Notes under the pieces: generated by a model
Databases searched by the model: none
What the model was told of the DNA's origin: nothing
Seen by the model: the letters and a program-made list of their open reading frames with translations, nothing else
Translations under genes and position numbers: made by a program
NCBI GenBank assembly: GCA_963662795.1
Contig: OY759746.1
Span: forward strand, 2,144,001 to 2,208,000
DNA length: 64,000 nt
Direction of reading: 5' to 3'
Source: Spirochaetia bacterium
Lineage (GTDB): Bacteria; Spirochaetota; Spirochaetia; CADAEX01
Shown here: in pieces, positions 242 to 35,994 of the stretch
Numbering within the stretch: the stretch's first letter is position 1
Layout of the letters: every line of letters starts with the position of its first letter

Positions 242-392
242 GGAGAACAGAGGATAATGCGCTTCGCTCCCTTTGGTCGCTTGGGCTTCGCCATAAAGCT
301 GTACTTTAATCTGGTGTAATCTAAAACAACCAGAAAAACTGTTTATTAAAAATATTATGACAGCTTCATCGCTTATCCTCGGGACGTTATGC
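242..392 (+). repeat. attC, native body type A
   Basis: GGAGAAC-AGAGGATAA...TTATCCTCGGGAC-GTTATGC. Confidence 0.85.
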
Positions 393-862
393 GAAAGGCT
401 GGCCGAAGAGGAATAGGCTGGGGGCGGGGGAGAGGAAGACGCCGCCGCACATCGTGTGCGCCGAAGAAAAATTAATAAACTGTGATTTTTATAATCTGTA
501 AGAGTGTTTGTATAAATTACCATTATAAAAGCAGAAAAAATGAAAATATAATTTTATTTTAGCAGTTCCTTTCGTTTCATTTGATTATGGATTGGTTAAT
601 AAACAAAAAAAAATAAATCGCATAAAATGTAATATATTCTTGTAAATGAAAATTATTTGGGATAAAGGTGAAAATAAAACTCTTAAGCTTGAAAGATGTA
701 TTTCTTTCAAGATATTTGCGGATTTGATTCTGGGGCTAGTTATAAAGTTAATTTGCAAAATATTAACCTTGGAATATAGCTGATTATGATAATTTTCATC
801 GTCTCACACTTCCATGTGTTCGACGAAAACCGCCCCAGCCAAGAAGAGCCGGCCATCCCATC
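387..862 (+). other. ORF-less cassette with long-range terminal stems
   Basis: No credible ORF between two attC sites; GC-rich ends pair (416-427 with 830-840; 400-405 with 850-855). Confidence 0.7.
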
Positions 863-1016
863 GCATAACAGCGAATGACCGGTTCCGGCTGTTTCTAAGG
901 AAACAGCCTCCACCCAAATTGCCGAAATAATACATGTTAAGAATAATGGAATAGAGTATAAACTTTTGGAGTGAAAAACACCATCGGCAACTTCGGTCAT
1001 TCGCGAGACGTTATGC
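863..1016 (+). repeat. attC, native body type B
   Basis: GCATAAC-AGCGAATGACCG...CGGTCATTCGCGAGAC-GTTATGC. Confidence 0.85.
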
Positions 1017-1065
1017 TCAATACCAGCCGCAAGAAGAAATCGCCCGGACCTCCGGCCGACGGGCG

Positions 1066-1137
1066 AAGAAAACTTGATCTGCTGTATAATATGCTTTATA
1101 CATAAAAATATATAGTTTTCTAGATATTTAATATGTT
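1066..1137 (+). other. attI-like internal landing pad, copy 1 (crossover G1135|TT)
   Basis: About 70 bp shared with 6029-6100, 11637-11708 and 26021-26091; similarity ends exactly at GTT; GTTCTACGG complements CCGTAGAAC (2806-2814). Confidence 0.75.
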
Positions 1138-1231
1138 CTACGGACAAAGAGTAGTATTATGCTATATTCTAAAAATATGGAACAGATATCAATCTGGGAG
1201 TATTATGGTCAAGAAAAGGATTTTATAAAGA

Positions 1232-1924
1232 ATGAAATTTGAATTAGAAGAGTATAACAGAAATATTTCTTCTCAAGAAATGATTGATGATCTTCAAAAA
1301 GTTGCAAAAAAGCTTAATAAAAAAAGCGTTACAATCTCTGAATATGAAGAATTCGGAAAATTTCATCCTCATTCAATTCAAAATAGATTTCATTCATGGA
1401 ATAATTCTCTAAAAGAAGCGAATTTAGAAATTAACAGAGAAGTGAATATATCGGATGAAGATCTTTTTAGAAATATTGAAAATGTATGGATTACACTAGG
1501 CCGTCAGCCAAGATATACCGAGATCAAAAAGCCTATTTCACAATTTTCGACGAAACCATATGAAACAAGATTCGGAACATGGAGAAAAGCTCTTGAAGCA
1601 TTTGTTCTATACATAAATTCAGATGAAGAAGCTGAAAATGAAAACCATGATTCTATTTCTAAAGGATCAAAAAATAATTCTGAAACAGTAAAATTCGTTC
1701 ATAAAACTAAACGAGATATCTCAGAAAGATTAAGATTTAAAATATTAATGAGAGATGGTTTTACGTGCAAGAAGTGTGGACGGAGTCCCATGAAAGAAAT
1801 GGGAGTTGAACTTCATGTTGATCATATTATTCCGTGGTCAAAAGGTGGTGAAACCATACCTGAAAATCTAGAAACAAAGTGTAAGGAATGCAATTTGGGA
1901 AAAGGTAATGCATTTAATGTTTAA
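1232..1924 (+). CDS. HNH endonuclease with N-terminal homing-endonuclease-associated repeats
   Basis: Two RF.(S/T)W..(S/A)L.. repeats; C-terminal RDGFTCKKCG...LHVDHIIPWSKGG...NLETKCKECNLGK. Confidence 0.85.
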   Translation: MKFELEEYNRNISSQEMIDDLQKVAKKLNKKSVTISEYEEFGKFHPHSIQNRFHSWNNSLKEANLEINREVNISDEDLFRNIENVWITLGRQPRYTEIKKPISQFSTKPYETRFGTWRKALEAFVLYINSDEEAENENHDSISKGSKNNSETVKFVHKTKRDISERLRFKILMRDGFTCKKCGRSPMKEMGVELHVDHIIPWSKGGETIPENLETKCKECNLGKGNAFNV

Positions 1925-1957
1925 TACAATCTTGATTGATAATATGTCGGAATAAAA

Positions 1958-2800
1958 ATGAAATGTCTATTCAGTAATGAGCAAGCAGACACAGAAGAAC
2001 ATATAATTCCTAAATGGTTGCAGAAGAAATATAACTTATACAATCAACTTCTAACAATACCTAATGGCACAAGAATTCCATATACAAAGGTAAAAATCCC
2101 TGTTCGTTCTGAAGACAACTTAATATTTGGAAATATTGAGAAAAATATTTCTGAAGGTAAATACAATATTGATGAAATCTATCTTTGGGGTTTCAAAATA
2201 CATATTGGATTGCTCATGATGGATTCTAAATTGAAAATTAATAGAAAGGATTCTTATTCAGATACAATATTTAATATTGAAGACTTTTCCACTCAACTAG
2301 ATTTATTTCAAAAACTATATTCACATTGGAAGGATGGTAAAACGACTCTTCCAAAATCTATAGGAAGTGTATTCATTCTCAACTCAACATTAGATGAAAA
2401 TCAGTTTGATTTTGTTCATTGTATCAAAACAAATACAATCTTGATCTCTTTCAATAGAATTTGCATCTTAGTGTTTTTATTTGATAATAATGATGCTTTT
2501 AATCATAAGATTGATCGCTCGTGGAATAACGACTTCATTAATAGACCAAATATCTCAAAAGAAGAAAAGTATATTGCCCAGCGAGTATGGGCTTGTGAAA
2601 ATTCTTATCATGCATATAAGAGAATGAGAGATATTCATTTAAAGGAAGTTGATGATACATTGGTCTTACAGCAAACAGAGCCTCATATTAAAGGAGAATA
2701 TTCAAAAGATGAATTCTCTAAAATATGCAAAATGTTTGGGATAGTACTCGAGGAATATAATAATTTTGCCATAAATAGGTACAATGTCTATGTTGAATGA
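1958..2800 (+). CDS. Hypothetical protein with N-terminal HNH-like motif
   Basis: 280 aa ORF; CLF...TEEHIIPKWL. Confidence 0.6.
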   Translation: MKCLFSNEQADTEEHIIPKWLQKKYNLYNQLLTIPNGTRIPYTKVKIPVRSEDNLIFGNIEKNISEGKYNIDEIYLWGFKIHIGLLMMDSKLKINRKDSYSDTIFNIEDFSTQLDLFQKLYSHWKDGKTTLPKSIGSVFILNSTLDENQFDFVHCIKTNTILISFNRICILVFLFDNNDAFNHKIDRSWNNDFINRPNISKEEKYIAQRVWACENSYHAYKRMRDIHLKEVDDTLVLQQTEPHIKGEYSKDEFSKICKMFGIVLEEYNNFAINRYNVYVE

Positions 2801-2807
2801 TAACGCC

Positions 2808-2924
2808 GTAGAACAAAAAGTTGAACCTGACATTCCCTTTGTCACGCTTTGTGCAGTCGCTACGCTCCTTGGCACAAATCGTGCCAAGCCCTTCGGGCAC
2901 GGGAACGCAGGTCAATTGGGCGTT
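2808..2924 (+). repeat. attC, foreign type (inner cassette A); IS inserted at its GTT
   Basis: GTAGAAC...TTGAACCTG/CAGGTCAA...GGC-GTT; unrelated to native bodies. Confidence 0.75.
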
Positions 2925-4680
2925 GAGGCTGTAGATAAAGTGTAAATTTTCAACAATTGCTTTATATCCAGATATTCCCATGATAAAATTCTATCAGACT
3001 GGGAGATTACAAAATGGGTAAATACAAAGAGTATTCTTATGAACAAAAAGTGCTGCTGCCGATAGATTTTTCCGAGCAGGTTCTTCCCGGAACCTTTGAA
3101 CACACACTCAATTTTCTCATTGACCGGGAAATTGATTTAACCATGTTTTATGAAAAACATAAAAATGATGAAAATGGAGCTCCCGCCTACGATCCGGCGA
3201 TCTTACTGAAGATAATTCTTTTTGCTTATTCACGGGGAATTATTTCCAGCAGAAGAATTGCCCGATTATGTCGGGAAAATGTCGTTTGCATGTCCCTCTC
3301 CGCAGATACCCGGCCGCACTTTAGCACCATAGCTGATTTTATTTCTACGATGGATAAAGAAATCGCTCCCCTGTTTACCCGGATTCTCTCGGTCTGTTAC
3401 GCCAATAACGTCATCGATAAAAACATGTTTGCCATCGACGGCTGCAAGATTTCTTCCAATTGCTCAAAGGAATGGAGCGGAACGAAAAAAGAACTGCTAA
3501 AAAAAGCGGGAAAGATAGAGGAATCTATCAAATACCTGTTGGAAAAACATAAACAGGAAGATAAAAGCCGGTATAGTCAAAGTCAGGAAGAGAAAGAAAA
3601 GGCTTCGATAGAGAAACTGAAAGCTAAATCCCAAAAGATCCATGACTGGCTGAACTCAAATGACGATAGAATGGGAAGCCAGGGGAAACCAATAAAAAGC
3701 AATATTACCGACAATGAAAGCGCGAAGATGTCCACCTCCCATGGAGTTATCCAGGGTTATAACGGAATTGCGGCGGTTGATGAAAAGAACCAATTAATCG
3801 TTTGGGCGGAAGCATTTGGCGACAGCAATGAATCCAAACATTTCCCCGAGATTCTGGATGGAATAAAAAACAATTTTAAATCGATTCAGGCATCGGAAGA
3901 TATCTTGAAAGAAACAGTGATTACCGCCGACAGCGGTTTTCATAATGATAATAATATGAAGCTGATTGTGGAAAATAACCTGACAGCCTTTGTCGCGGAC
4001 AACCAGTTTCGAAAGAGGGATGTGAGATTTGCATCAGCCCAGAAACATAAACAAAAACCTGTCACGAATTGGGAACCTGCCAAAGGGAAAAAATATTACT
4101 CAGTAGATGATTTTATCTATGATGAAAATACAAAGAAATTAATGTGCCCAGCTGGTTTCGAAATGAAACTGAAGTGCAGGAACTTTCAAAGCTCTGGCTA
4201 TAGTGGAACATCCTACATAGGGAGAAAGGAAAACTGCTTAACCTGTCCGCTAAGAAAGAAGTGTATACGTAAAGAGAGCACGGAAGTCAGACAGGTGACC
4301 AGGTTTGATAGTAGTCGGGGAAAAGAAAAGGTCTCATTTACAGAACGAATGAGGAGAGTCTTTGACGCGCCTGAAGGTCGGAGTATCTACAGTAAAAGAA
4401 TGGGTACTGTAGAACCGGTGTTTGGAAATATCCGATCGACACTGGGGTTAAATTATTTTACACTGCGAAGTAAGAATAAGGTAAATGTTCAATGGTTGCT
4501 TTTCTGTATTGTGCATAACATTGGAAAAATACAGAGGTATGCGGAAGCATAGGGGAAAATAGAGGATGAAATGAATCAGGGATTACATTTTGACCTCACA
4601 AGACAATCTTATGGACTTTATGATCTTGTAGAATGGGAGAAGTAAATGAAGATTGAAAATCGGGGTTTTTCTACAGCCTC
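2925..4680 (+). mobile_element. IS1182-family insertion sequence
   Basis: Terminal IRs GAGGCTGTAGA / TCTACAGCCTC; flanked by GTT on both sides; single 512 aa transposase. Confidence 0.88.
3014..4552 (+). CDS. IS1182-family DDE transposase
   Basis: GAPAYDPAILLKIILFAY..GIISSRRI, AIDGCKI, ADSGF, YSKRMGTVEPVFGNI. Confidence 0.9.
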   Translation: MGKYKEYSYEQKVLLPIDFSEQVLPGTFEHTLNFLIDREIDLTMFYEKHKNDENGAPAYDPAILLKIILFAYSRGIISSRRIARLCRENVVCMSLSADTRPHFSTIADFISTMDKEIAPLFTRILSVCYANNVIDKNMFAIDGCKISSNCSKEWSGTKKELLKKAGKIEESIKYLLEKHKQEDKSRYSQSQEEKEKASIEKLKAKSQKIHDWLNSNDDRMGSQGKPIKSNITDNESAKMSTSHGVIQGYNGIAAVDEKNQLIVWAEAFGDSNESKHFPEILDGIKNNFKSIQASEDILKETVITADSGFHNDNNMKLIVENNLTAFVADNQFRKRDVRFASAQKHKQKPVTNWEPAKGKKYYSVDDFIYDENTKKLMCPAGFEMKLKCRNFQSSGYSGTSYIGRKENCLTCPLRKKCIRKESTEVRQVTRFDSSRGKEKVSFTERMRRVFDAPEGRSIYSKRMGTVEPVFGNIRSTLGLNYFTLRSKNKVNVQWLLFCIVHNIGKIQRYAEA

Positions 4681-4772
4681 GTTATATGGAATCGAGAAAT
4701 GCAATAAGAATTTATTACCATAGAACAATAAAATTTGATATAATGATTTAAAATCTAAATTACAGAGGGCTT

Positions 4773-5087
4773 ATGCTGTATTATAATGAGAATGATTTAA
4801 ATTCAATGATAAAAACTGTAAAAAAGGCTGCTGCTAACAAGTGTAATAGAAAAAGTGTAGAGAACTTCTCTGACAACGAATTAGATAAAATTATTAGTAA
4901 TGATTTAACAATCAAAGAGATTACAGAAGACTTTATTGAAAGTTATAAGAAATGGATGGAATTTCATTTAAAGATTGAAAATGAAAAGAAATGGGGAAAT
5001 CTCAATGAAAAGGAAATTATCGAACTCGGGGAACTAATACAATCAAGAGAAATAAAAAGAGAAAAATTTATCAAAGCACTAGAATAA
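4773..5087 (+). CDS. Hypothetical protein (inner cassette B)
   Basis: 104 aa ORF with GAGGG RBS. Confidence 0.6.
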   Translation: MLYYNENDLNSMIKTVKKAAANKCNRKSVENFSDNELDKIISNDLTIKEITEDFIESYKKWMEFHLKIENEKKWGNLNEKEIIELGELIQSREIKREKFIKALE

Positions 5088-5130
5088 AAATATAGATGGA
5101 TAAAATTAAAATAGTAGGTTTATAAAAATA

Positions 5131-5601
5131 ATGGAATATTATCATCTAAATTGGAAAGAATATATTAAAAATGACATCATAGAAAATGGTTCTATGGGTA
5201 ATTTTTTAAAACAATATATTTTAGATAATAATGATTTAACAAATTTAGATAAAACTTGGAGATTGTTTCAAGAACAAACATTTGAACTTATAAGAATAAA
5301 CGAATTTCCCGAAAAGCCAAGTCGATATAGATCTATTTTCTTATTTGAGAGTGAAATAGATGCCTGCGAATTTAAAAAGAAAGATAAAAGAGAAAATGAG
5401 TTTTTATATAAAATAGAAATACTTGATTCAACAAAAATTATACATAGAGCATCTATGGGATTATACGAAAGGGTACCAATGGGTAGACCGGTGTTGCCTG
5501 CTCTTGAAGAGCAAGCTCGTCAATATTGGATGGGAATGAATAATCTTGATCATAAATTCAGATGTGAATTATTAGTCGAATCAAAGATTAAAATATTATA
5601 A
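5131..5601 (+). CDS. DUF2441-like protein (inner cassette B)
   Basis: FELIRINEFPEKPSRYRSIFLF...ARQYW...ELLVE motif pattern. Confidence 0.6.
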   Translation: MEYYHLNWKEYIKNDIIENGSMGNFLKQYILDNNDLTNLDKTWRLFQEQTFELIRINEFPEKPSRYRSIFLFESEIDACEFKKKDKRENEFLYKIEILDSTKIIHRASMGLYERVPMGRPVLPALEEQARQYWMGMNNLDHKFRCELLVESKIKIL

Positions 5602-5618
5602 TAATTTTAATAAAATCC

Positions 5619-5757
5619 ATATAACAAGAGATTTGGAGTAGTCAAAACCTTTGGCGCAGTTCTGGCTAAAGACACTCCGCGCTGATCGCGCTACGTTCCA
5701 GAACTGCGCCAAGCCTCGTAGATTCGATCGGTTTCGCTACTCAAATCGTCGTTATAA
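5619..5757 (+). repeat. attC, foreign type (inner cassette B)
   Basis: TCCATATAAC complements GTTATATGGA at 4681; GATTTGGAGTAG/CTACTCAAATC arms; ends GTTATAA. Confidence 0.85.
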
Positions 5758-5832
5758 GAAAAAATTAAAAAGGGAAGAAAGTCCAGCCTTGGCTCCGCCG
5801 TGCGGCCTGGACAAGAAGCGGCTGGTACTGGA

Positions 5833-5979
5833 GCATAACAGAGGATAAAGCGCTTCGCTCCCTTTGGTCGCTTGGGCTTCGCCACACATCGCAGCTGAAA
5901 ATTAGAATGTTCTTGTATAAACTAGTTTGTTTTATGTATTTAAAAATGCGATGCGTCGCTTATCCTCGGGACGTTATGC
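5833..5979 (+). repeat. attC, native type A
   Basis: GCATAAC-AGAGGATAA...TTATCCTCGGGAC-GTTATGC. Confidence 0.85.
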
Positions 5980-6028
5980 TCAATACCAGCCGCAAGAGGA
6001 AATCGCCCGGACCTCCGGCCGACGGGCG

Positions 6029-6100
6029 AAGAAAATTGAATCTGTTGTATAATGTACTTTATACATAAACATATATAGTTTTCTATTTATTTAATATGTT
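6029..6100 (+). other. attI-like internal landing pad, copy 2 (G6098|TT)
   Basis: Same pad sequence; GTTATGTTT complements AAACATAAC (7564-7572). Confidence 0.75.
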
Positions 6101-6149
6101 ATGTTTATAAAGATTCAAATCAACTCATTTAAGTGTATTATTAATAAAT

Positions 6150-7553
6150 ATGATAAACAAAATGGATCAAAAATTTACATTTCAAGATGAAATTATATTA
6201 AAAGGTAAATGGTGGGTTAGCTCAGATAATAAATTACCTGGAACTTTTCAATTTATTCCAGGTCAAAAAAATGAGTTATTATTATCTGGAACTTTGAATG
6301 AAAATGACACAATAATTAGAAATACAATAGATTATGGAAATGGTAAATATAAAATAATTGAACCACTAAATAAAAAATATACAATTTATGGTTTAACAGA
6401 AACTAATCAAAAGATAACTCTTATAAATTGTATATTGACTAAGCAAGATAACTTTTTTGATGATACTAAACTTAAAACTACATATCGGATTCAATACTGT
6501 ATATTTGATGAATATATAAATGATCTCGAAACTCTCAAAATAAAATCTCTTAGTGTATATATGGAAGGGATTTTGCAATTTATTAATAGATACAATGATA
6601 CATTTATTAATCCTAATGAATTGATGGAAGTATTAATTAAAACATACGAAATAAATGACTTTAAAGTATCATTAAAATCTAAACTTTTTAAAACTAATGA
6701 ATTTGAATTAAATAGCACGACTCAAAATGTATACAAAATGAAACCTTATATCGAAGTTACTAGTGTAGAAAACATAAAAAGTTACGATGACATGATTAAT
6801 ATTTTTGATAAATTTAAAGATCTTATAATATTGGGACTAAATAATTCAGTAGAGATAAATTCGATAAATGTAGAATTTGATAATAAAATAATAAATGTCA
6901 TATTCTTACACGAGTACAGATATAAATTAAGAATAAATTATGAAATATTTAAATTATTTGATATTAATGAAGCAATAATTATAAAATGGTTTGAATTATA
7001 TAGTAAAATTCCTAATATAATACAATTACTGAGATCAACAATTCAAAATGAACATGCAAAGCGATTATTTATTGATAATAAATTCTTTAATCTCGCATCA
7101 ATCTTTGAATCTTTACATCACTTTATTTATACCGATAGATTTATAAGAAAAAATGAAAATGAAGATACTATAAAAAAAATTGAATTAATTTATAAAGAAT
7201 TAATGTCTCATAAGAATATGCTTTTTGAATCCTATTTTAAAGTTATCCCAGCTGAAATAAGACAAGATTTTTACTTTCATCCTTTATCGATTACATTTAA
7301 AGACAGATTACTATATTCAATAGATAATTATGTAGATTATTTTAATGATATATCTCCTCTCGAAATGTGTGAAAAAATTAAGAATAAAAGAAATGGAATA
7401 GCTCATGCATTTAATGACATGAAAATGAATGGATTAGAAATCCATAATTTAAATTTAATTTTAAAAAGGCTCATATACTTAGAAATATGTAATTATTTGG
7501 GTATTGATACTAAAATCAATAATATAATAAAACATACATTTAAAACTATATAA
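6150..7553 (+). CDS. ApeA-like N-terminal domain + HEPN protein (putative anti-phage RNase)
   Basis: GKWW...LPGTFQF and IYGLT..KITLINC at N-terminus; FESLH and RxxxxH (RNGIAH) at C-terminus. Confidence 0.65.
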   Translation: MINKMDQKFTFQDEIILKGKWWVSSDNKLPGTFQFIPGQKNELLLSGTLNENDTIIRNTIDYGNGKYKIIEPLNKKYTIYGLTETNQKITLINCILTKQDNFFDDTKLKTTYRIQYCIFDEYINDLETLKIKSLSVYMEGILQFINRYNDTFINPNELMEVLIKTYEINDFKVSLKSKLFKTNEFELNSTTQNVYKMKPYIEVTSVENIKSYDDMINIFDKFKDLIILGLNNSVEINSINVEFDNKIINVIFLHEYRYKLRINYEIFKLFDINEAIIIKWFELYSKIPNIIQLLRSTIQNEHAKRLFIDNKFFNLASIFESLHHFIYTDRFIRKNENEDTIKKIELIYKELMSHKNMLFESYFKVIPAEIRQDFYFHPLSITFKDRLLYSIDNYVDYFNDISPLEMCEKIKNKRNGIAHAFNDMKMNGLEIHNLNLILKRLIYLEICNYLGIDTKINNIIKHTFKTI

Positions 7554-7565
7554 GGATCATTTAAA

Positions 7566-7682
7566 ACATAACAAACATTTTAACCGGTCCGGATTTTTAT
7601 TATGCATTTTGCCCGCTTCGTTCAAATGCAATATACACGCCAACACTTCGTGACAATCCAGCAGGTTAAATGGATTTTATAA
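7566..7682 (+). repeat. attC, foreign type (inner cassette C), R' mutated to TTTATAA
   Basis: ACATAAC...TTTAACC/GGTTAAA...; expected GTT reads TTT at 7676. Confidence 0.7.
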
Positions 7683-7754
7683 AATAAAAAAAAGAGAAAA
7701 AAGTCCAGCCTTGGCTCCGCCGTGCGGCTTGGACAGAAAGCGGCTGGTACTGGA

Positions 7755-26680: not shown

Positions 26681-29305
26681 ATGTTTAAACGTATTTCTGC
26701 TCAAAAAGGTGATAAGCTAACCCAAATCTTTATTTTATTGTTCATACTCCCCATTTTTCTGATGTTTTTTTTATCATGTATGTCTTTAAATCAATCTGGC
26801 AGCGAAAAATCACTTAGTTTTAGAGAATCACATGATAATTTTATCCAATTTTTGAACGAGCATCCTGATTATCAACCTTTAAGCAGCCGTGTCAATTTAA
26901 TTCAGCTGACAGAATATGCTGATATTATTCCTCTCTCTTATGATAAAACTCCGGCGAACAGAACACAAACCTTTAGAATGGACACTCTTTTTGAAAGTGG
27001 GCCGAAAGTTTATTATCTTAATGGATTTTTTTATTATTTTTATGTAATTAAAGGTATGATAAAAGGAGTTAAAATTGATTTAAAAAATAGAACTTATTCA
27101 AATGTTGACGTGTCATCAAATAAACATTTTGCAATTTACCGTGATCCAGCTAATGAAAAGTTGGAATTAATCCCATTCGGCCGGGATTTTACAAAGACGA
27201 AAGTTGTTTCTTCAAAAGGGGGTAGTCTCCCTTTCTACGGGACACATGAAGCTTTATGTCTTGATCCTCCTCTTTATATCTATGAAAGTTCAAGAGAAGG
27301 ATTTCCTCTGGAATCGTTTCTTATAATTCCCCGTGATTTAGATGGCTTGGGTAAAATTATGTATGAAGAAAATTACTATAAAAATGGATATAATCTGGTT
27401 ACTGGTCTTGATAAAAAAGGATTTGATCGTAACGGTTATGATAAAGATGGTTATGCACACCATGGCTATAACAGGAAAGGTTATGACAGGGATGGTAATA
27501 ATTATTCAGGACCAATAGGGGCTAATGGGAAAACTGGTTTTGGAACACTTAAGTGGGCCAACGGTGATGTATATCATGGGTACTTTCAGAATAATGAAAT
27601 TAACGGTATGGGGATCATTAATGGTACAGATGGTGCAATATATGCAGGCTCTTTCCAGGAAGAAATGAAAATAGGTCAGGGGCTCCTTTACTCTCCAGAT
27701 GGAACAAAAAAGTTGGTGTCATGGAAAGATGGAGAAATGTATATAATTTCATCAAATCCTGGACAAGTGATTGAGCCAGATGGGGAGTGGGCATTCCTTG
27801 GTAAAGGTGTTAAAAATGGACTGGCTCAGGGAAGAGGAGATGCTGTAGGAATAAAAAGTGGATGGATAATTACTAACGGTCTATTTGAACAGGGCCGCTT
27901 AATTGAAGGCTCTCTTCTTACTGTTAATGGAACATCATATAGAGGCCGTTTTACTGATGGACTTCTTTCAGATGGCAAAATCCTGTCAGCCAATGGCACT
28001 GCATATACCGGTCATTTAAGGAATGGAATCCCGGATGGTGCAGGGCAGCAAGTGGATAAAGACGGGATATTCTATGAGGGGAATTTTTCAAACGGACGAT
28101 TTGAGGGTAATGGAGAATTAACGCTTCAAAATGGCGATGTTTATAATGGAGCATTTGTTAATGGAGTTCCTCATGGTAGCGGTATATATAAAAACTCTAC
28201 CGAAGGAAGTATAGAGAAGTGCGAGTTTTACGAAGGAAAAAGAATTGATCAACTCTACTTAATGAAAATAGCATTGGCAGAAGAAGAAGACAAAAAACTA
28301 GCAGAGGGTGAGCGGTTAAAACTGGAAGAGGAAGTTAGGTTGCGAGAGGAAAAAGCCAGACAACAGGCGGCTGAAAATGTAGAAAAGAAAGCTTCAAAAA
28401 AGAACTTATTCGGTGCCTTTGTCGCAGGAGCATCAACTGTTGTAGTCGGGAATGCTTATGGTTTGGATTCCAGTGACACTTTATTGCTGGCAACAGCTGC
28501 GGCAAAAGATGTAATAAGTGATACTGATGGAGAAAATATAAGAGCTATGAGTGATACACTAATTGAAAATAAAAAGCAGATGAAAACCTGGGAATCAAAA
28601 TATGGTCAATCCGACTTATCAAATGTATCAGGCAGCAATACTTTCTTGTCCCAAAAACAGCAGCCATTGCAAGACATAAATAATAATCCAGCAGATAAGA
28701 ATCCAGTTCTCACAAATTTGAAATCCAGAGCATCCAGTAATAATGCGGAAATTCCAAAGAAAAATCCTTTAGCTGAACCACCGCAGATGAATAAGGAAAT
28801 TAAATCAGAAAATAACAAATTACTCGATCTACCTAAATCAAATAAAAGCGGGAGGAGTGTTCTTCGCGGGTTAATTGATCGTGATGTGCGTTATTCTCCT
28901 GAATACAGGACCGGTGAGGTTACCTTTAGAAATCCTCAGACTGGGATAGAAAGTATTACAATTAAACTGAATAATGGAGCCATAGGTGAATTAACCTGGA
29001 ATGGGAATTATAAATGGATTGCTGCCAATGGCTATAATCAAAAATCGCCATATCTAGTTGGTTGTGTAGTTGAATTGAGCAGTGAACAAAACAAAATATA
29101 TGTTCTTATGAGCCACAATGATGTTGTTCCAACAGATGCAGGTGATAAATATGGCTATAATTTAGCATGGAGTGCAAACGGGTCAACTTTGAAGAGTGTA
29201 TCTGGCAGTCAATTTACACCATTCTCCAAGGAAGAAACTTCAGCAATTTTTGAAGATTTGCATTATTCCAGTTATCAACCCACTGCTGCTTGGCTAGTTT
29301 GGTAA
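26681..29305 (+). CDS. Large MORN-repeat putative lipoprotein
   Basis: Signal peptide ending FFLSC; G(Y/F)D..G repeats; many YxGxFxxGxxxGxG MORN repeats; coiled-coil segment. Confidence 0.8.
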   Translation: MFKRISAQKGDKLTQIFILLFILPIFLMFFLSCMSLNQSGSEKSLSFRESHDNFIQFLNEHPDYQPLSSRVNLIQLTEYADIIPLSYDKTPANRTQTFRMDTLFESGPKVYYLNGFFYYFYVIKGMIKGVKIDLKNRTYSNVDVSSNKHFAIYRDPANEKLELIPFGRDFTKTKVVSSKGGSLPFYGTHEALCLDPPLYIYESSREGFPLESFLIIPRDLDGLGKIMYEENYYKNGYNLVTGLDKKGFDRNGYDKDGYAHHGYNRKGYDRDGNNYSGPIGANGKTGFGTLKWANGDVYHGYFQNNEINGMGIINGTDGAIYAGSFQEEMKIGQGLLYSPDGTKKLVSWKDGEMYIISSNPGQVIEPDGEWAFLGKGVKNGLAQGRGDAVGIKSGWIITNGLFEQGRLIEGSLLTVNGTSYRGRFTDGLLSDGKILSANGTAYTGHLRNGIPDGAGQQVDKDGIFYEGNFSNGRFEGNGELTLQNGDVYNGAFVNGVPHGSGIYKNSTEGSIEKCEFYEGKRIDQLYLMKIALAEEEDKKLAEGERLKLEEEVRLREEKARQQAAENVEKKASKKNLFGAFVAGASTVVVGNAYGLDSSDTLLLATAAAKDVISDTDGENIRAMSDTLIENKKQMKTWESKYGQSDLSNVSGSNTFLSQKQQPLQDINNNPADKNPVLTNLKSRASSNNAEIPKKNPLAEPPQMNKEIKSENNKLLDLPKSNKSGRSVLRGLIDRDVRYSPEYRTGEVTFRNPQTGIESITIKLNNGAIGELTWNGNYKWIAANGYNQKSPYLVGCVVELSSEQNKIYVLMSHNDVVPTDAGDKYGYNLAWSANGSTLKSVSGSQFTPFSKEETSAIFEDLHYSSYQPTAAWLVW

Positions 29306-29321
29306 AAACTAAAAATATAAT

Positions 29322-29357
29322 AAAGCTTCTATGTATTCATTTACATAGGAGCTTTTT
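29322..29357 (+). terminator. Rho-independent terminator
   Basis: AAAGCTTCTATGTA-loop-TACATAGGAGCTTTTT just after the stop. Confidence 0.65.
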
Positions 29358-29415
29358 AAATTAATTTAAAATCAAAAAAGTATTACATGCTAATTGAAAT
29401 CAATATGAGATGTTT

Positions 29416-29459
29416 AGATAGCAAACGATTCGAGCAGCCCGCTCAATCGGGCGTTATAA
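29416..29459 (+). repeat. Minimal 44 bp attC-like site (inner cassette E), R'' degenerate
   Basis: AGATAGC-AAA-CGATT(C)GAGC-AGCCC-GCTCAATCG-GGC-GTTATAA. Confidence 0.68.
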
Positions 29460-29538
29460 AAATCAAAAGGTAAAAAAGAGAAAGAAGTCCAGCCTTGGCT
29501 CCGCCGTGCGGCCTGGACAAGAAGCGGCTGGTACTGGA

Positions 29539-29708
29539 GCATAACAGAGGATAATGCACTTCGCTCCCTTTGGTCGCTTGGGCTTCGCCACACATCGTAG
29601 ATTTTGAACAACAACTTCTATAAAAACAAGTTTTTGAAGAAAAATATTATAACTTTGAAATAATAATTCTTGGGCTACGATGCATCGCTTATCCTCGGGA
29701 CGTTATTT
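29539..29708 (+). repeat. attC, native type A
   Basis: GCATAAC...GTTATTT. Confidence 0.85.
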
Positions 29709-29926
29709 GCAATACCTTCGCGAAGAGAAAATCGCCCGGGCCCCTGGCCGACGGGCGAGGATTTGCAGTCAAATAATATGTTTTAGGCGGACGCTTTTGA
29801 CGTGCAAGAACAGATATTATCTAAATAAATACATAAAAGTCTTCTGATAGTTTGATGTGTTACTTGTTGAAATAAACCAAAAAATGAACTATATTTGATA
29901 AATAATGGTTCATTTAGGAGTTTTAT

Positions 29927-30181
29927 ATGAAATCTATTACCATACATGGAATTGATAATGATCTCGATAAGAAAATTGCAGAAAAGTCTGTCGAATTTGG
30001 TTTAAGCCAGAACCGAACAGTTAAGTATATCCTGCAAAATTCATTAATTACTGATAAAAAAGCTTCTAAAAAGGACTCCTATGCTGAATTATTTGGTAAA
30101 TGGTCAACAAAAGAGAAAGAAGAGTTTGATAAAAAAATCAGTGATTTTGAAGTAATAAATGAAATGGACTGGAAAAAATGA
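29927..30181 (+). CDS. Antitoxin (RHH/FitA-like)
   Basis: MKSITIHGIDNDL...GLSQN; overlaps VapC. Confidence 0.75.
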   Translation: MKSITIHGIDNDLDKKIAEKSVEFGLSQNRTVKYILQNSLITDKKASKKDSYAELFGKWSTKEKEEFDKKISDFEVINEMDWKK

Positions 30182-30576
30182 CCAAGATACTACTTGATAC
30201 AAATGCCTATAGTGAGTTTATGTCCGGAAATAAGTTGGTATTTGAATATATTATAGAAGCAGAAATAATCTATGTATCAACCATTATGATCGGTGAACTA
30301 TTCGCAGGTTTTCAAGGTGGAAAAAAGTATACACAAAATAAAGAAGATTTTAAGAAATTCATCAGCAAAGATGGAATAAAAATATTGAATGTCACAATTG
30401 AAACATCAGAAATATTTGGAGAAATCAAGGCGGAACTAAGTAAAAAAGGAAAAATGATACCATTAAATGATATTTGGATTGCTGCTCATGCAATAGAAAC
30501 AGGTTCAAAATTAATCACATACGATTCACACTTTAAACAGATAAATGGTTTGAGAATTTGGGAAGAATATAGATAG
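30178..30576 (+). CDS. vapC: VapC toxin
   Basis: LLDTNAYS...GEL..GF...IPLNDIWIAAHA...LITYDSHF. Confidence 0.9.
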   Translation: MTKILLDTNAYSEFMSGNKLVFEYIIEAEIIYVSTIMIGELFAGFQGGKKYTQNKEDFKKFISKDGIKILNVTIETSEIFGEIKAELSKKGKMIPLNDIWIAAHAIETGSKLITYDSHFKQINGLRIWEEYR

Positions 30577-30698
30577 GTAAATTGTCCAATTACTGATTCA
30601 ACTCTTTGCTTTTTACAGGTTAAGTAAGTATTAAAAAGAAAAGGAAGTCCAGCCCTTGGCTCCGCCCTAACGGTCTGGACAAGACGCGAAGGTACTGC

Positions 30699-30890
30699 AA
30701 ATAACAGCGATTATTTCGCTGCGCTCCCTGTGGTCGCTTGGGCTCCTGCCAGTTGAGCTGGCAGATCGCCATATTTTGTTTTCATAAAACCGGAACAACA
30801 TGTGCTTTGTGCTCTTCAAGTTTGTAAAAACCAAATAAAAGTATTTTAGAGTTTAGTCACAAAACATCGAATAATCGCGAGACGTTAGCA
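30699..30890 (+). repeat. attC, native type C
   Basis: AAATAAC...GTTAGCA. Confidence 0.85.
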
Positions 30891-31009
30891 GCAATACGTC
30901 CCCTAGAGAAAATCGCCCGGACCTCCGGCCAACGGGCGAGGATAGGCTATAATAATATTTTATTAAAAAACAGTTGAAATTGAAAATATGAGAAATAATT
31001 GATGAAATT

Positions 31010-31723
31010 ATGAAAATATTAACATGGAATTGTAATATGGCATTTCGAAGAAAGTATGAAATCCTACAAGATTTTCAACCGGATATTGCAGTAATACAAG
31101 AATGTGAAAACAACAGTATTTTAGGTAAAATTAAAAATGTAATAAATTATTCAGATATATTATGGTATGGGGAAAATAAAAATAAAGGATTATGTATTCT
31201 GACTTTTAATAAATACCGCATAAAAAATAATTTTCAAAATGAAGACTTTAAATATATCCTTCCCATTGAAATTGAAAATGGAACATCTTCGATAATTTTA
31301 TTAGCAGTATGGACACAATTTGTAAATAAAAATATTTATGAAAGTTATGTAGTCCAAGCTGTAAGAGCACTTCTATATTATAAAAAATTATTGGAAGAGA
31401 AAAATGTTTTTATAATAGGAGATTTTAACAGTAATTCTATCTGGGATAATGAATCTCCAAAAGAATACACACATTCTCAAATGGTAGATTTGCTAAAACA
31501 ACAAGAGATTGAAAGTGTTTATCATTTTTTAAAAAAAGAAAAACACGGAAAAGAAACAATTCCTACTTTATTTTTTCAAAAGAATATAAAAAAGTCATAT
31601 CATATTGATTATTGTTTTTGTAAAATATCTAAAATGAATAGAATTAAAGAATTCAGAATTGGGGAATACGCCAAATATATTACTAAAAGTGATCATATGC
31701 CTCTGTTCATTGAAATAGAATAG
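31010..31723 (+). CDS. Endonuclease/exonuclease/phosphatase family protein
   Basis: ILTWNC, DIAVIQEC, IGDFNSN, YHIDYCF, SDHMPL. Confidence 0.88.
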   Translation: MKILTWNCNMAFRRKYEILQDFQPDIAVIQECENNSILGKIKNVINYSDILWYGENKNKGLCILTFNKYRIKNNFQNEDFKYILPIEIENGTSSIILLAVWTQFVNKNIYESYVVQAVRALLYYKKLLEEKNVFIIGDFNSNSIWDNESPKEYTHSQMVDLLKQQEIESVYHFLKKEKHGKETIPTLFFQKNIKKSYHIDYCFCKISKMNRIKEFRIGEYAKYITKSDHMPLFIEIE

Positions 31724-31777
31724 AAGTATTGACTATTCTCAAAAAGTACAATATATTGTACAATAAGGAGAGAAATA

Positions 31778-32035
31778 ATGGATGCTGTAACATATTCGGA
31801 TTTAAGACAAAATCTGAAATCTTATTTAGACAAAGTTTACCATGATCATGATCCAATGATTATAACAAGAAAAAATAATGAAAACCTCGTTTTGCTTTCA
31901 ATTGCAGAATATAACAGTCTAATTGAAACAAACTACTTATTAAGCAATGAGGCTAATGCGCTGCACCTTAAAAAATCAATTGAGCAGCTTAATGTCGGAA
32001 AATATGAAGAAAAGGAATTATTGGCAGATGAATAA
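31778..32035 (+). CDS. yefM: YefM antitoxin
   Basis: VTYSDLRQNLKSYLDKV..DHDP.IITRK...ETNYLLS. Confidence 0.88.
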   Translation: MDAVTYSDLRQNLKSYLDKVYHDHDPMIITRKNNENLVLLSIAEYNSLIETNYLLSNEANALHLKKSIEQLNVGKYEEKELLADE

Positions 32036-32288
32036 GCTGTTCACAGATGAGGCATGGAAAGACTATTTATATTGGTTTGAAAATGATAGGAAGCAATTAA
32101 AAAAGATTAATGATCTTATAAAAGAAATTGAAAGATCACCATTTGCTGGAATAGGAAAACCAGAATCTCTAAAATATAATTTGAAAGGATTTTGGTCAAG
32201 AAGGATTGATCATGAACATAGAATAGTGTATCAAGTCGAAGGTTCTCAGCTAAGAATAATATCTTTAAAATATCATTACGAAAAATAA
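32028..32288 (+). CDS. yoeB: YoeB toxin
   Basis: AWKDYLYW...KKINDLIK...GIGKPE.LK..L.G.WSRRID.EHR.VY. Confidence 0.9.
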   Translation: MNKLFTDEAWKDYLYWFENDRKQLKKINDLIKEIERSPFAGIGKPESLKYNLKGFWSRRIDHEHRIVYQVEGSQLRIISLKYHYEK

Positions 32289-32372
32289 TAAAGTAAATAA
32301 TTAAGAGAAAAAAATGGAAGAAGTCCGGCCTTGGCGTTGCCGTGCGGCCTGGACAAGAAGGGGACGTACTGC

Positions 32373-32544
32373 TGCTAACAGCGGGTAAGAAGCTGCGCTC
32401 GGAGTACCTCGCTTGGGCTTCGCCATATTTTGCTTTTATGAAATCAGAACAATTAATATTTCATCATTTCAGATGTGACAAAAGCTGTCAAAATGATTGA
32501 AAAGTATTAATCGCAAAACATCTTTTACCCGCGGGACGTTATGC
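32373..32544 (+). repeat. attC, native type D
   Basis: TGCTAAC-AGCGGGTAAGAAG...CTTTTACCCGCGGGAC-GTTATGC. Confidence 0.85.
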
Positions 32545-32712
32545 TCAATACCAGCCGCAAGAGGAAATCGCCCGGACCTCCGGCCAACGGGCGAGAGAGA
32601 AAGAGAAACAATAAGTATAGATTATACTGTAAAAGATAAGAAATGCTTATAGAAAATGAAGGATCTTGACAATAATATGTAATAACAATATAATTACATT
32701 AGAGGTAGAGAA

Positions 32713-32961
32713 ATGATAGTTTCTGTTGTTTCCATTGGCAATTCAAAAGGAATACGTCTTCCAAAAGCATTATTAAATCAACTAAAAATATCAGATAAAC
32801 TGGATTTAGAAGTAGAAGATCAGAAAATAATACTTAAACCTGTATCTAATAATCCAAGAGCAGGATGGAATTTGGCTTTTAAAGATATGCATAAAAAAAA
32901 TGAAGATCAATTATTGATAAATGAAAGTATTGATTCTAAGGATTTCAAATGGGAATGGTAA
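32713..32961 (+). CDS. mazE: AbrB/MazE antitoxin
   Basis: IGNSKGIRLPK. Confidence 0.85.
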   Translation: MIVSVVSIGNSKGIRLPKALLNQLKISDKLDLEVEDQKIILKPVSNNPRAGWNLAFKDMHKKNEDQLLINESIDSKDFKWEW

Positions 32962-33278
32962 TAAATCAGTATGAAGTTTATCTGGTTGAGCTTGATCCAA
33001 CAAAGGGACATGAAATACAAAAAACAAGACCATGTTTAATTATTTCCCCCGATGAAATGAATCATAATATAAGTACTGTTATTATTGCTCCAATGACAAC
33101 AAAATCACATAATTATCCGACACGTGTAGAATTAAAGTTTTTAGGAAAAAAAGGATGGATAGTTTTAGATCAGATAAGAACAATAGACAAACAGAGATTA
33201 TTAAAAAAAGTTGGTAAGATTGAAATTAAAGAAATTATAAAAGTTAAACAAATCATTAAAGAAATGTTGGTTGATTGA
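32949..33278 (+). CDS. mazF: PemK/MazF toxin
   Basis: LDPTKGHEIQKTRPCLIISP...LDQIRTIDKQRL. Confidence 0.9.
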   Translation: MGMVINQYEVYLVELDPTKGHEIQKTRPCLIISPDEMNHNISTVIIAPMTTKSHNYPTRVELKFLGKKGWIVLDQIRTIDKQRLLKKVGKIEIKEIIKVKQIIKEMLVD

Positions 33279-33364
33279 TAAAAAAAAATAAAATAATAAT
33301 GCATGAGAATAAGTCCGGCCTTGGCGTTGCCGTGCGGCCTGGACAAGAAGCGGCTGGTACTGGA

Positions 33365-33518
33365 GCATAACAGCGAATGACCGGTTCCGGCTGTTTCTAA
33401 GGAAACAGCCTCCACCCAAATTGCCGAAATAATACATGTTAAGAATAATGGAATAGAGTATAAACTTTTGGAGTGAAAAACACCATCGGCAACTTCGGTC
33501 ATTCGCGAGACGTTATAC
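33365..33518 (+). repeat. attC, native type B (body apparently identical to 863-1016)
   Basis: GCATAAC...GTTATAC. Confidence 0.85.
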
Positions 33519-33640
33519 GAAAAACCACCCCAAGAGAAAACCGCCCGGACCTCCGGCCCACGGGCGAGGATCAAGACAAAGTAAAAGTGATTGATTATTC
33601 ATTTCAAAATATTAACAGTAACCAGAAAGAGAGGGGTTTT

Positions 33641-33979
33641 ATGAAGAGTTTTCCTGATTTTATGAAAAGTGAATTAAATAAAATTGATCAAAGTCAGCAA
33701 AACACGAAAGATATTGTAGGATATTATTATACTGGAAAAGACGGTTCTCAAATAGCTTTTTAGGAGTGTTACTCAGACAGAGAATCAATAAAACACAAGC
33801 ACGATCTTGATGAGCATATAGTTTGTGTAAGCGGAGAATACATTGCATATTTTACTGAAGAAAAATATATACTACATGCTGGAGATGAAATACATATACC
33901 AAAAAAAACTGAGCAGTGGGGGAAAAGTATAAAAGGAACTAGAACAATTCATTTTTTTGGTGGGAAAAGGATAAAATAA
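33641..33979 (+). pseudogene. Cupin-domain protein with in-frame TAG (33761)
   Basis: DGSQIAF*EC...HKHDLDEHIVCVSGEY...GDEIHIP...GTRTIHFFGGKR in one frame. Confidence 0.75.
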
Positions 33980-34063
33980 AGAAATAGAACTGGGAAACCA
34001 TAAAGTGATTAAGACTTGACATATACGGCAATAATAAATATACTATACGTATAGAGGTATAGT

Positions 34064-34303
34064 ATGAACAGGAAGTTGACATTAAGCCTTGATCCTAAAA
34101 TAATTGATTTTGCGCATGATTTTTCAAAAAAATCAAATCAGCCTATTTCGAAAATAGTAGAGAATTACTTTTTAGAATTAAAAAATAAAAATACTTCTAA
34201 ATATGCAAAAGATGTAGAAGATTTGTATGGAATTCTTGAAGGAATAGAAATACCCGATAAAAAAGAAATGAGAAAAGCATTTTATGAAAAAAATATTAAT
34301 TGA
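34064..34303 (+). CDS. DUF6364-like antitoxin
   Basis: KLTLSLD...A..FSK....ISKIVENYF. Confidence 0.75.
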   Translation: MNRKLTLSLDPKIIDFAHDFSKKSNQPISKIVENYFLELKNKNTSKYAKDVEDLYGILEGIEIPDKKEMRKAFYEKNIN

Positions 34304-34700
34304 TTTAAATGTAATTCTTGATTTCTTAAATAAAAGAGAAGGACATGAAAAAGCTGCTGATATATTAAATATGTGTTCGTCTGGAAAAGCAGTAGGCTAT
34401 ATCTGTGCTCATGAAATAACAACACTTTCCTATTTTCTTGGAAAAATAATTAAAGAAAAAACGAAAAGAAACAAGATAATAAATGGAATACTGGAGTTAT
34501 TAAATATAATATCAATAGATAAGAAAATATTAAAAGAAGCATTATTGTCAAAAATTGATGATTATGAAGATGCGGTAATTGATGAGTCTGCTAAAAAAGA
34601 AAAAATAGAATATATAATAACAAGAGATTTAAAAGATTTTAAAAATGCAAGCATTAAGGCAATTACACCAGAAGAATATTTAACCAGATCAATATCATAA
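34284..34700 (+). CDS. PIN-domain toxin
   Basis: ILIDLNVILDF...DYEDAV...IITRDLKDF. Confidence 0.88.
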   Translation: MKKILIDLNVILDFLNKREGHEKAADILNMCSSGKAVGYICAHEITTLSYFLGKIIKEKTKRNKIINGILELLNIISIDKKILKEALLSKIDDYEDAVIDESAKKEKIEYIITRDLKDFKNASIKAITPEEYLTRSIS

Positions 34701-34752
34701 AGAACCCAAGCCTTGGCGGTGCCGTGCGGCTTGGAAGAAGGGGTGGTTCATC

Positions 34753-34944
34753 GTATAACAGCGATTATTTCGCTGCGCTCCCTATGGTCGCTTGGGCTCC
34801 TGCCAGTTGAGCTGGCAGATCGCCATATTTTGTTTTCATAAAACCGGAACAACATGTGTTTTATGCTCTTCAAGTTTGTAAAAACCAAATAAAAGTATTT
34901 TAGAGTTTAGTCACAAAACATCGAATAATCGCGAGACGTTCTCC
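34753..34944 (+). repeat. attC, native type C
   Basis: GTATAAC...GTTCTCC. Confidence 0.85.
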
Positions 34945-35099
34945 GAAATACCGCCCCAGGAGAAGGATCGCCCGGACCTCCGGCCCACGGGCGAGGATAA
35001 GTTAAGAAAATAATACAACAAATGAGTGTGAAAATTGTTAAATGATTATTAAATAGTTGACAACTTGACAATTAAAATAATTACAAATATAATTAATAT

Positions 35100-35339
35100 A
35101 TGAAAACAATGCAAATAGGAGATTTTAAAGCTCAATTCTCAAAGGTTCTCGAAGAAGTAAAACACGGAGAGGAAATAATAATATCTTATGGTAAACAGAA
35201 GAAAAATGTTGCAGTAATAATTCCATATGAAGAATACAAAGAAAAAAATAGAATTAAATTGGGCTTGTTGAAAGATAAAGCAAGTTATAAATTTAATAAT
35301 GATTATGAAATGACTGAAGAGGAGCTTGTAAGTCTTTGA
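35100..35339 (+). CDS. Phd/YefM antitoxin
   Basis: IGDFKAQFSKVLEEV..GEEIII. Confidence 0.85.
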   Translation: MKTMQIGDFKAQFSKVLEEVKHGEEIIISYGKQKKNVAVIIPYEEYKEKNRIKLGLLKDKASYKFNNDYEMTEEELVSL

Positions 35340-35733
35340 AATATCTCCTTGATACACATTATTTAATCTGGAGCATAATTGACCCGGATAAAATAGATAA
35401 AAAGAGGAAAAAGATATTATTGGATGTGAATACAGAGAAATATATAAGTCAGATAAGCTTTTGGGAAATATCAATAAAATATTCGCTTGGGAAATTAGAA
35501 TTAAAAGGAATTACTCCTGAAGAATTACTAGAGGCAGCAATAAAATCAGGATTTCAAATATTGGAATTAGAAACAAAAATACTTGCACATCATACAAACT
35601 ACCGAAAAATCCCAACCACAAAGATCCTTTTGACCGTTTAATAATTTGGGAATGTATTTGCAATGATTATATTTTATTAACAGCAGATGAAAAAGTAAAA
35701 GAATATAAAGAAAACGGTTTGAAAATAGTATAG
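35336..35733 (+). pseudogene. VapC/PIN toxin with frameshift near 35586
   Basis: YLLDTH...SFWEISIK..LGKL; HKDPFDRLIIW continues in another frame. Confidence 0.8.
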
Positions 35734-35823
35734 ATAAAATACAATCTACAAATAAATAAATGAAAATAAGAAAGCCCCAAGCCTTGGCGGTGCCGTGCGG
35801 CTTGGGAGAAGGGGCGGTACTTC

Positions 35824-35994
35824 CGAGAACAGCGGTTAAAGCGCTTCGCTCGCAGTAGCTCACTTGGGCTCCTGGCTGTTGAGCAGCCAGTTCGCCAAAC
35901 ATCGCAGTTTAGAATAAAAGTATAAGAATCAAGAAATTTGTAAAATAAGCAAATCATAATTTGCGATGCTTCGCTTAACCGCGGGACGTTATCG
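35824..35994 (+). repeat. attC, native type E
   Basis: CGAGAAC-AGCGGTTAAAGCG...CGCTTAACCGCGGGAC-GTTATCG. Confidence 0.85.

Follow-up and report, generated by a model that had tools for sequence, protein, structure and literature searches.

A 64,000-nt stretch of the genome of a Spirochaetia bacterium (assembly GCA_963662795.1, contig OY759746.1, positions 2,144,001 to 2,208,000, here called the window) carries one end of a long array of integron-like gene cassettes. Between window positions 386 and 35830 lie 21 complete cassettes on the plus strand with both ends visible, separated by sites that span 134-179 nt from a closing AAC to an opening GTT. The cargo in the window includes toxin-antitoxin genes of the PIN, YoeB, MazF and Gp49 types, GNAT acetyltransferases, a SLATT and reverse-transcriptase pair, an ApeA-like gene, defence-like genes and secondary insertion sequences (IS). 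Such cargo is typical of sedentary integrons. A search of the whole genome with an nhmmer profile built from the window sites located about 194 sites, all on the plus strand, between genome positions 1,848,848 and 2,180,682. Earlier finders relying on exact pairing of the L arms had missed most of them. The array comprises 191 cassettes over about 330 kb, or 8.4% of the 3.93-Mb genome, and the window holds its distal end, the last 36.7 kb. One of the 192 scored sites is a rearranged pseudo-site of 890 nt (window 23998-24888). Beyond the array, the genome contains only 4-5 profile matches. To our knowledge the array exceeds Vibrio superintegrons in size and, with about 190 cassettes, is among the largest known. 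A tyrosine recombinase gene running in the same direction as the cassettes heads the array, and the first cassette begins at a unique attI-like junction about 150 nt past that gene.

Each site is an imperfect palindrome of the integron type, with an R'' box ending in AAC, an R' box beginning with GTT, and inner L'' and L' arms around a variable loop. On the top strand the order is hairpin B, an end arm of 20-21 nt that closes with AAC, 1 nt, L'', the variable loop, L' and 5 nt reading GRGAC. Then follow G|TT with the remaining start arm of the next cassette, AAGA(G) and hairpin A. The L arms pair over 11-12 bp, mostly perfectly, and the central spacers measure 1 nt against 5 nt (1 + 5 nt in 37 of 52 strict hits). 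In classical integrons, extrahelical bases in the L box determine strand choice. Here L'' has 1 extra base in the commonest inner type, the other types have perfect L arms of 11-13 bp, and the fixed irregularities of the site sit in the R arm. GC-rich hairpins A and B are found just inside both arms at nearly every cassette, with 159 occurrences of the strict hairpin-A motif in the array. A terminator scan of window positions 17000-23500 did not call these conserved hairpins as terminators. The end arm belongs to cassette n and the start arm after G|TT to cassette n+1, and the two R-arm halves that belong to one cassette are its own two ends. A full stem of 20-21 bp can thus form only in an excised circle or between neighbours of the same type. 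The ends of the first cassette, at the attI-like junction, are already matched, which indicates that the arms travel with the cassette.

The two ends of a cassette are complementary far beyond the terminal boxes. A reading of this DNA from its sequence alone had reported complementary ends in 19 of the 21 window cassettes, in 10 sequence types, and we reproduced this count. The five end pairs it quoted also lie where it placed them, the second coordinate of each marking the C of AAC rather than the start of the arm. We scored the extension over positions 8-22, with a strict pass at 7 or more. Sixteen window cassettes pass, and three more are complementary with few mismatches (386/869, 18573/19347 and 22914/23998). 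The exceptions are 15450/17314, which contains an IS, and 24888/25805, which adjoins the rearranged site. Across the whole array, 173 of 191 cassettes reach the strict score with their own ends, compared with 3191 of 36290 non-own pairs (8.8%) and 50 of the 192 neighbour pairs that face each other in array context. The cassettes are not independent, as they represent 74 distinct arm pairs, or 28 types once arms with at most 2 differences are merged. From type to type the two arms co-vary, as proposed. Of 69 distinct pairs 44 are ungapped, and in 38-44 of these each of positions 4-9 and 12-20 is a Watson-Crick pair. Varying positions show two to four pair types, with all four at positions 6, 7, 14, 15 and 16. 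Pairing breaks off abruptly at position 20-21, and the flanks AAGA and AGAA beyond it are non-complementary. The mismatch noticed at about position 11 is a fixed feature: of 70 distinct pairs examined, 64 have at least 15 identities, and 62 of these oppose A in the start arm to G in the reverse-complemented end arm. On the top strand this gives A.C, and on the bottom strand T.G. Close by, roughly one pair in two is irregular a second time, with an A/T mismatch at position 10 (16/64) or with an end arm that is longer by one base within positions 7-10 (18/64).

The recombinase heading the array has 339 aa and shows the catalytic R, K, HxxR, H and Y residues. Like Xer-type proteins it consists of a core-binding and a catalytic domain (Pfam PF13495 and PF00589), and it has neither an arm-binding domain nor an IntI insertion. 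The best NCBIfam match is the XerA-type family NF040815, at 214.5 bits just below the cut-off of 220. The integron integrase profile TIGR02249 scores 200 bits against a cut-off of 265, in two stretches that leave profile positions 172-230 unmatched. In an alignment, about 40 residues that are present in a true IntI of a Treponema-like genome and in the intI pseudogene of the genome studied here are absent from the 339-aa protein, which lacks the IntI-specific insertion with its I2 helix. Matches in PDB are nearly equal for Vibrio IntI4 (132.5 bits, two stretches) and a Pyrococcus XerA-like protein (131.3 bits, one stretch). Dimer resolution at a single dif-like site does not describe this gene, which heads an array of about 194 sites, as its relatives head theirs; the genome has other Xer-like genes. 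The protein has an N-terminal extension with W..P....W residues similar to that of Treponema integrases. Judged by these sequence comparisons, the recombinase is Xer-like without the IntI-specific insertion, and the system is not a classical integron.

Relatives of the recombinase head similar arrays. In a set of 80 related loci, 67 candidate sites share the strand of the recombinase gene and 6 are on the opposite one. Same-strand arrays follow homologues in genome G011, from a different genus of the same family (46% identity), where several arm types are letter-identical to those described here, and in G007 (59% identity), where own-end stems reach 16-18 bp. The same holds for loci of Flavobacterium, Prolixibacteraceae and other Bacteroidota (about 40-44% identity), and for G020 (38% identity), where a perfect run of at least 9 is reached by just 3 of the 7 cassettes detected, sites having probably been missed. 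In eight arrays of relatives with 53 own pairs, a perfect own-end run of at least 9 occurs in 37 of 53 cassettes compared with 6 of 362 non-own pairs. Of these 37 cassettes, 33 have A/G at position 11, and positions 12-15 all match in 32 of 53 own pairs against 17 of 362 non-own pairs. Cassettes of the relatives combine a 10-bp perfect match, the A/G at position 11 and about 4 more pairs, and the variable parts are much shorter in Bacteroidota. G000 and G011 have conserved copies of hairpins A and B, whose conservation does not extend to G007 or to arrays of Bacteroidota.

Next to true IntI genes the arrays look different. In two Treponema-like genomes, G243 and G278, the integrases score 484-505 bits on TIGR02249 with the insertion present, and the own-end run is 7 with a maximum of 8. 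There is no extension signal: own and non-own ends score 1.07 and 1.11 in one genome, represented by 27 distinct cassettes, and 0.50 and 1.33 in the other, represented by 4. The array described here resembles Treponema chromosomal integrons in its spirochaete host, its chromosomal length and its recombinase gene upstream on the same strand; Treponema intI reportedly also runs in the direction of its cassettes. It differs in the recombinase and in the own-end match. Wu et al. (2013, BMC Evol Biol) give Treponema integron sites as short, at 63-68 bp. A quick tree groups the IntI proteins into a single clade (SH-like approximate likelihood ratio test, SH-aLRT, 100) that excludes the insertion-less array recombinases. 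The remaining backbone is without resolution, and the placement of the insertion-less lineages relative to IntI is not given by this tree. The 22 rows it labels as array-associated were so labelled by homology to the query, and arrays were seen for about half of them.

Some matching beyond the boxes is shared with classical integrons. The expectation in the sequence-only reading that only the heptamer should match was too strict, since most cassettes pair with themselves over 9-11 consecutive nt, past the 7-nt boxes, according to Bouvier et al. (2009, PLoS Genet). The first 10 pairs found here are in line with that report. The sites also share with classical attC the imperfect palindrome, the AAC and GTT boxes, the inner L arms, the G|TT crossover, a start that pairs with the cassette's own 3' site in the circle, and a bottom strand that folds better. 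They depart from it in the 20-21-bp stem with its sharp end, the fixed T.G at position 11, the frequent irregularity at positions 7-10, the spacers of 1 and 5 nt, the mostly perfect L arms of 11-12 bp, and the recombinase without the IntI insertion. Taking the array as an ordinary integron, as had been done, is thus not borne out: the adjacent recombinase lacks the insertion, and the long stem tracks that family across phyla.

The arms might match for reasons unrelated to recombination. Cassettes could acquire matching ends as they are made or copied, from a palindromic template or by hairpin-templated repair in a single-stranded circle. The 39 type-A cassettes fall into 33 cargo clusters, and one arm type flanking so many cargos suggests a modular origin of the ends over slow co-evolution. 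Such a neutral by-product is nevertheless unlikely. A mismatch fixed in 62 of 64 paired stems is kept across two phyla, whereas templated correction would erase it. The sharp end of the stem speaks against it as well, and so does the stem length, which varies along with the lineage of the recombinase.

Folding predictions with DNA parameters for 187 distinct combinations of site and context bear on the suggestion that the extra stem is available to the hairpin only in the circle or next to a neighbour of its own type. The gain is reproduced. The bottom strand folds at -32.3 kcal/mol in array context and at -42.7 kcal/mol in the circle, a difference of 10.4 kcal/mol, and the top strand at -30.0 and -38.8 kcal/mol. 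The mean predicted pairing probability of AAC with GTT on the bottom strand is 0.62 in the array and 0.95 in the circle. In the predicted circle folds an outer stem of 21 bp is followed by a bulge of 4 nt and then by the L stem, and hairpins A and B form separately at the base. For the circle, the predicted advantage of the bottom strand over the top is 3.9 kcal/mol, in keeping with the T.G wobble. Wobble and energy difference lend indirect support, by way of this modelling, to recombination of the folded site through its bottom strand. The same pairing could instead serve RNA, if the 5' and 3' ends of a cassette transcript paired for processing or stability. The cassettes are co-oriented, some have promoter-like sites of their own, and GC-rich hairpins flank each gene. 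We regard this explanation as very improbable, as the fixed position is A.C on the sense strand and T.G on the bottom strand, the sense-strand fold is the weaker one, pairing would have to span 0.5-5 kb of RNA, and Rfam gave no family match in window 1-40000, hairpins A and B included.

We suggest, with a probability of roughly 0.6, that the inverted repeats are the halves of the outer (R) hairpin arm in an integron-like gene capture system run by an Xer-like recombinase without I2, with the following mechanism and consequence. By the general layout of tyrosine-recombinase sites, the monomer that cleaves AA|C on the bottom strand would bind the arm outward from the cut, which is where the extension lies. 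The IntI insertion reads extrahelical bases. Without it, this family would need a regular duplex arm, and we propose that this need accounts for the 10 perfect pairs, the T.G wobble one helical turn from cleavage and the 4-10 clamp pairs. The T.G would exist only in the folded bottom strand, the folded top strand having A.C and the duplex an ordinary pair. Being so confined, the wobble could mark fold and strand and partly replace the extrahelical bases. With a central bulge of 5 nt against 1 nt, the site would offer no spacer suited to a second exchange of strands. Good substrates would then be circles, and sites whose two neighbours are of one type, whereas mismatched array sites would be poor ones. 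A dif-type site is laid out as arm, 6 nt, arm, which the folded sites here may resemble.

The logic of this proposal may be analogous to that of known Xer recombination. According to Escudero et al. (2020), I2 gave IntI its single-strand activity, and Xer, which has no I2, recombines CTX phage DNA in the form of a hairpin resembling a duplex site. The array described here would share with CTX phage and with integrative mobile elements exploiting Xer (IMEX) the I2-less recombinase, the hairpin as a duplex mimic with two paired arms, and the requirement for one strand exchange. It differs in having a dedicated recombinase by an attI-like junction and about 190 cassettes, instead of hijacking the host XerCD/dif system. 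Smyshlyaev et al. (2021) describe the IntI insertion as "not fully conserved" in an integron-like subgroup.

Several points weigh against our reading. The link between recombinase and sites is one of synteny. The folds are those of naked 200-nt DNA at 37 °C. The true-IntI control covers one lineage. No arrays were found beside the IntI genes of genomes G248, G099, G047, G147 and G083 with a simple finder that may have failed because extrahelical bases break exact arm matches, so the control rests on G243 and G278 plus the literature. Since some extension occurs with true IntI in the literature, the absence of I2 is not needed to explain all of it, and a binding arm of 11-13 bp alone would not account for pairs 13-20 of the array studied here. 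The circle-only switch proposed from the sequence holds in so far as the circle has the extra stem. It fails as a clean switch, since the 50 sites already fully matched in place make up about a quarter of the array and mismatched contexts must excise too. The initial interpretation is thus partly supported overall.

Duplicated cassettes add a further difficulty. In 21 duplicated cassettes, identity reaches upstream past the G by 3-25 nt, and by 3-8 nt in 18 of the 21, placing the upstream boundary at G|TT in all 21 pairs. In 13 pairs the identity continues across the inner module as far as the downstream G|TT, as expected of classical cassettes, which run from TT through gene and site to a final G. 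The other 8 break at AAC: they have a different inner module, and identity ends 2-9 nt past AAC. A strict bottom-strand mechanism acting at R' only does not predict such swaps, which also count against our proposal. They may reflect either a second crossover at R'', through top-strand events, or homologous exchange in the common end arm. A unit bounded by its repeats, which is what these 8 duplicates have in common, would also be produced by transposons or miniature inverted-repeat transposable elements (MITEs) inserted in a repeated target, with the 20-bp inverted repeats as their termini. This is extremely improbable. Cassette cargo consists of toxin-antitoxin, acetyltransferase and defence-like genes, with transposases only as secondary IS insertions. 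All units are co-oriented, and their ends are GTT/AAC core sites adjoining L arms. The flanks are GRGAC upstream and AG downstream without duplication, profile matches outside the array are few, and a tyrosine recombinase heads such arrays in several phyla.

Arm types cluster along the array. Same-type adjacencies number 49 of 187, compared with 16.4 +/- 3.7 in 5000 random orders, and only 1 of the 49 adjacent pairs has cargo in common. Same-type clustering without common cargo suggests that type matters in cis. Runs with unrelated cargo include six and eight type-A and six type-B cassettes, and a type-A run stands at the array head. The variable part of the arm could act as a compatibility or address code, a sharper form of an idea in the sequence-only reading, tying the competence of a site to its neighbours, so that circles and cassettes flanked by their own type are active and type decides movement and the build-up of runs. 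The clustering, the predicted rise in R-box pairing from array to circle, and the occurrence of the same arm types in another genus (G011) are consistent with such a code. We find it rather doubtful. Runs would be explained just as well if cassettes were acquired in bursts at the attI-like end or formed in place, a foreign type inserted into a matched site would break runs, and the Bacteroidota arrays have much shorter variable parts. We know of no mechanism that matches an incoming arm type to its target. Among 188 cassettes scored, both flanking sites are matched in only 21, one in 55 and none in 112. A further idea, that a cassette's own ends pair within the array through the upstream L' and the downstream L'', was rejected, as compatible adjacencies number 24 of 191 against 18.4 +/- 3.5 expected (P = 0.087).

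The Xer-like reading and the compatibility groups can be joined into one tentative picture, which is possible and falls short of what we would favour. The arrays would form a separate, phylum-spanning class of gene capture without I2. The cassette would be the arm-bounded unit and the inner module a plug with crossovers on either side. The T.G would replace the extrahelical bases, and the outer pairs would define compatibility groups that decide which cassettes in the 330-kb array can move.

Table 1. Coordinates of the features discussed (window positions unless marked otherwise).
Feature	Position	Strand	Remarks
Array-adjacent tyrosine recombinase, 339 aa	L004:1294-2313; genome 1,846,782-1,847,798	+	Just upstream of first site
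True intI, frameshifted	L002; genome ~412,035-413,300		Carries ..LPYALEKKYPNAGKEW.. region; 1.4 Mb from array; no array adjoining
Cassette	386..869	+	Ends complementary, middle irregular, score 5
Cassette	1010..5839	+	Type B arms, start arm GTTATGCTCAATACCAGCCGC; HNH gene, inserted DDE transposase
Cassette	5973..7761	+	Type B arms; ApeA-like gene
Cassette	7920..8939	+	Type B arms; Gp49/HigB-like gene
Cassette	9099..11424	+	Type B arms; IS with 385-aa DDE transposase
Cassette	11581..12908	+	Type B arms; ketopantoate-reductase-like gene
Cassette	13065..15293	+	Type B arms; SLATT_5 gene and reverse transcriptase gene
Cassette	15450..17314	+	Non-matching ends, type D start and type G end; contains IS; probably a fusion
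Cassette	17493..18415	+	Type F arms; antitoxin and PIN toxin
Cassette	18573..19347	+	No open reading frame (ORF) of at least 90 aa; complementary ends 17 bp
Cassette	19487..20472	+	Type G arms, start 19487-19506, end 20453-20472; antitoxin and PIN toxin
Hairpin A of cassette 19487..20472	19516-19540
Hairpin B of cassette 19487..20472	20416-20447
Inner site module (example)	20473..20612	+	Between R'' AAC 20470-20472 and R' GTT 20613-20615; L''/L' arms pair; spacer 1 nt on 5' side, 5 nt on 3' side
Cassette	20613..21393	+	Type A arms; GNAT acetyltransferase
Cassette	21552..22735	+	Type J arms; GNAT acetyltransferase
Cassette	22914..23998	+	Type A arms, one extra mismatch, score 6
Cassette	24888..25805	+	Non-matching ends, B-like start and type A end; upstream site (23998-24888) without proper R' junction
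Cassette	25965..29545	+	Type B arms; 874-aa MORN-repeat protein
Cassette	29702..30705	+	Type I arms; PIN toxin
Cassette	30884..32379	+	Type E arms; YoeB toxin
Cassette	32538..33371	+	Type B arms; MazF/PemK toxin
Cassette	33512..34759	+	Arm type of its own, start arm GTTATACGAAAAACCACCCC; PIN toxin
Cassette	34938..35830	+	Type F arms; antitoxin and PIN toxin
Distal array end, last cassette	35988..36725	+	Truncated LigB-family gene running into site remnant without R''
LigB-family dioxygenase gene	36186-36746		Cut after ~113 matched residues by site remnant
Last R' junction	36706		Start arm interrupted by IS
IS element	3014-4552		DDE transposase
IS element	36821-38029		rve transposase
385-aa ORF	9801-10958	-
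385-aa ORF	15647-16804	+
385-aa ORF	41192-42349	-
385-aa ORF	47891-49048	-

The features of the window are collected in Table 1. Four ORFs of 385 aa, found inside and past the array, appear from their sequence to be one IS family; the two that were scanned have identical Pfam scores for DDE_Tnp_1 and DUF4372. Two further IS elements are present. At the distal end the LigB-family gene is cut short, and the array then ends at an IS. Elsewhere, on a Flavobacterium silvisoli contig, a recombinase gene (580 aa, with a long N-terminal extension) is directly followed, upstream of the first detected site, by a gene for a 509-aa protein (L029:10926-12455) with a YRDD motif typical of reverse transcriptases. 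For window 17000-36999, environmental metagenome contigs from three runs (X1, X2 and X4) carry single cassette bodies at 90-100% identity that end at the repeats, which indicates that related cassettes exist outside the source genome. Assembled metagenome contigs gave no usable evidence on circles or alternative junctions, as contigs break at the repeated sites and the joints have short sides, of 21-47 nt, within repeats.

A full-text literature search, with subscription journals mostly outside its reach, returned no description of these arrays, of 20-bp stems with 9-10 pairs beyond those already reported, of a fixed wobble, of arm typing or of a link to an insertion-less recombinase. New here are the integron-like cassettes with an extended, wobble-marked R arm tied to a recombinase family without the IntI domain, together with the size of the array, its 28 arm types, a position-11 wobble that recurs in Bacteroidota, the grouping of same-type cassettes and inner modules that are swapped between copies. 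In the accepted account, as given by Escudero et al. (2020), the acquisition of I2 enabled integron integrases to recombine folded single strands. In the array described here a natural I2-less recombinase heads about 190 cassettes, with sites that look built to imitate a duplex. What I2 is needed for could be tested directly with such natural parts, in which the stem length, the position-11 wobble and the 5/1 bulge are simple features open to mutation. If the joint picture is true, these systems would be living relatives of a stage that preceded integron integrases or existed alongside their emergence. IntegronFinder reportedly requires the IntI-specific domain before it calls an integron complete. 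If so, arrays of this kind would be reported at most as attC clusters without an integrase, and many mobile toxin-antitoxin and defence genes of Spirochaetia and Bacteroidota could stay hidden.

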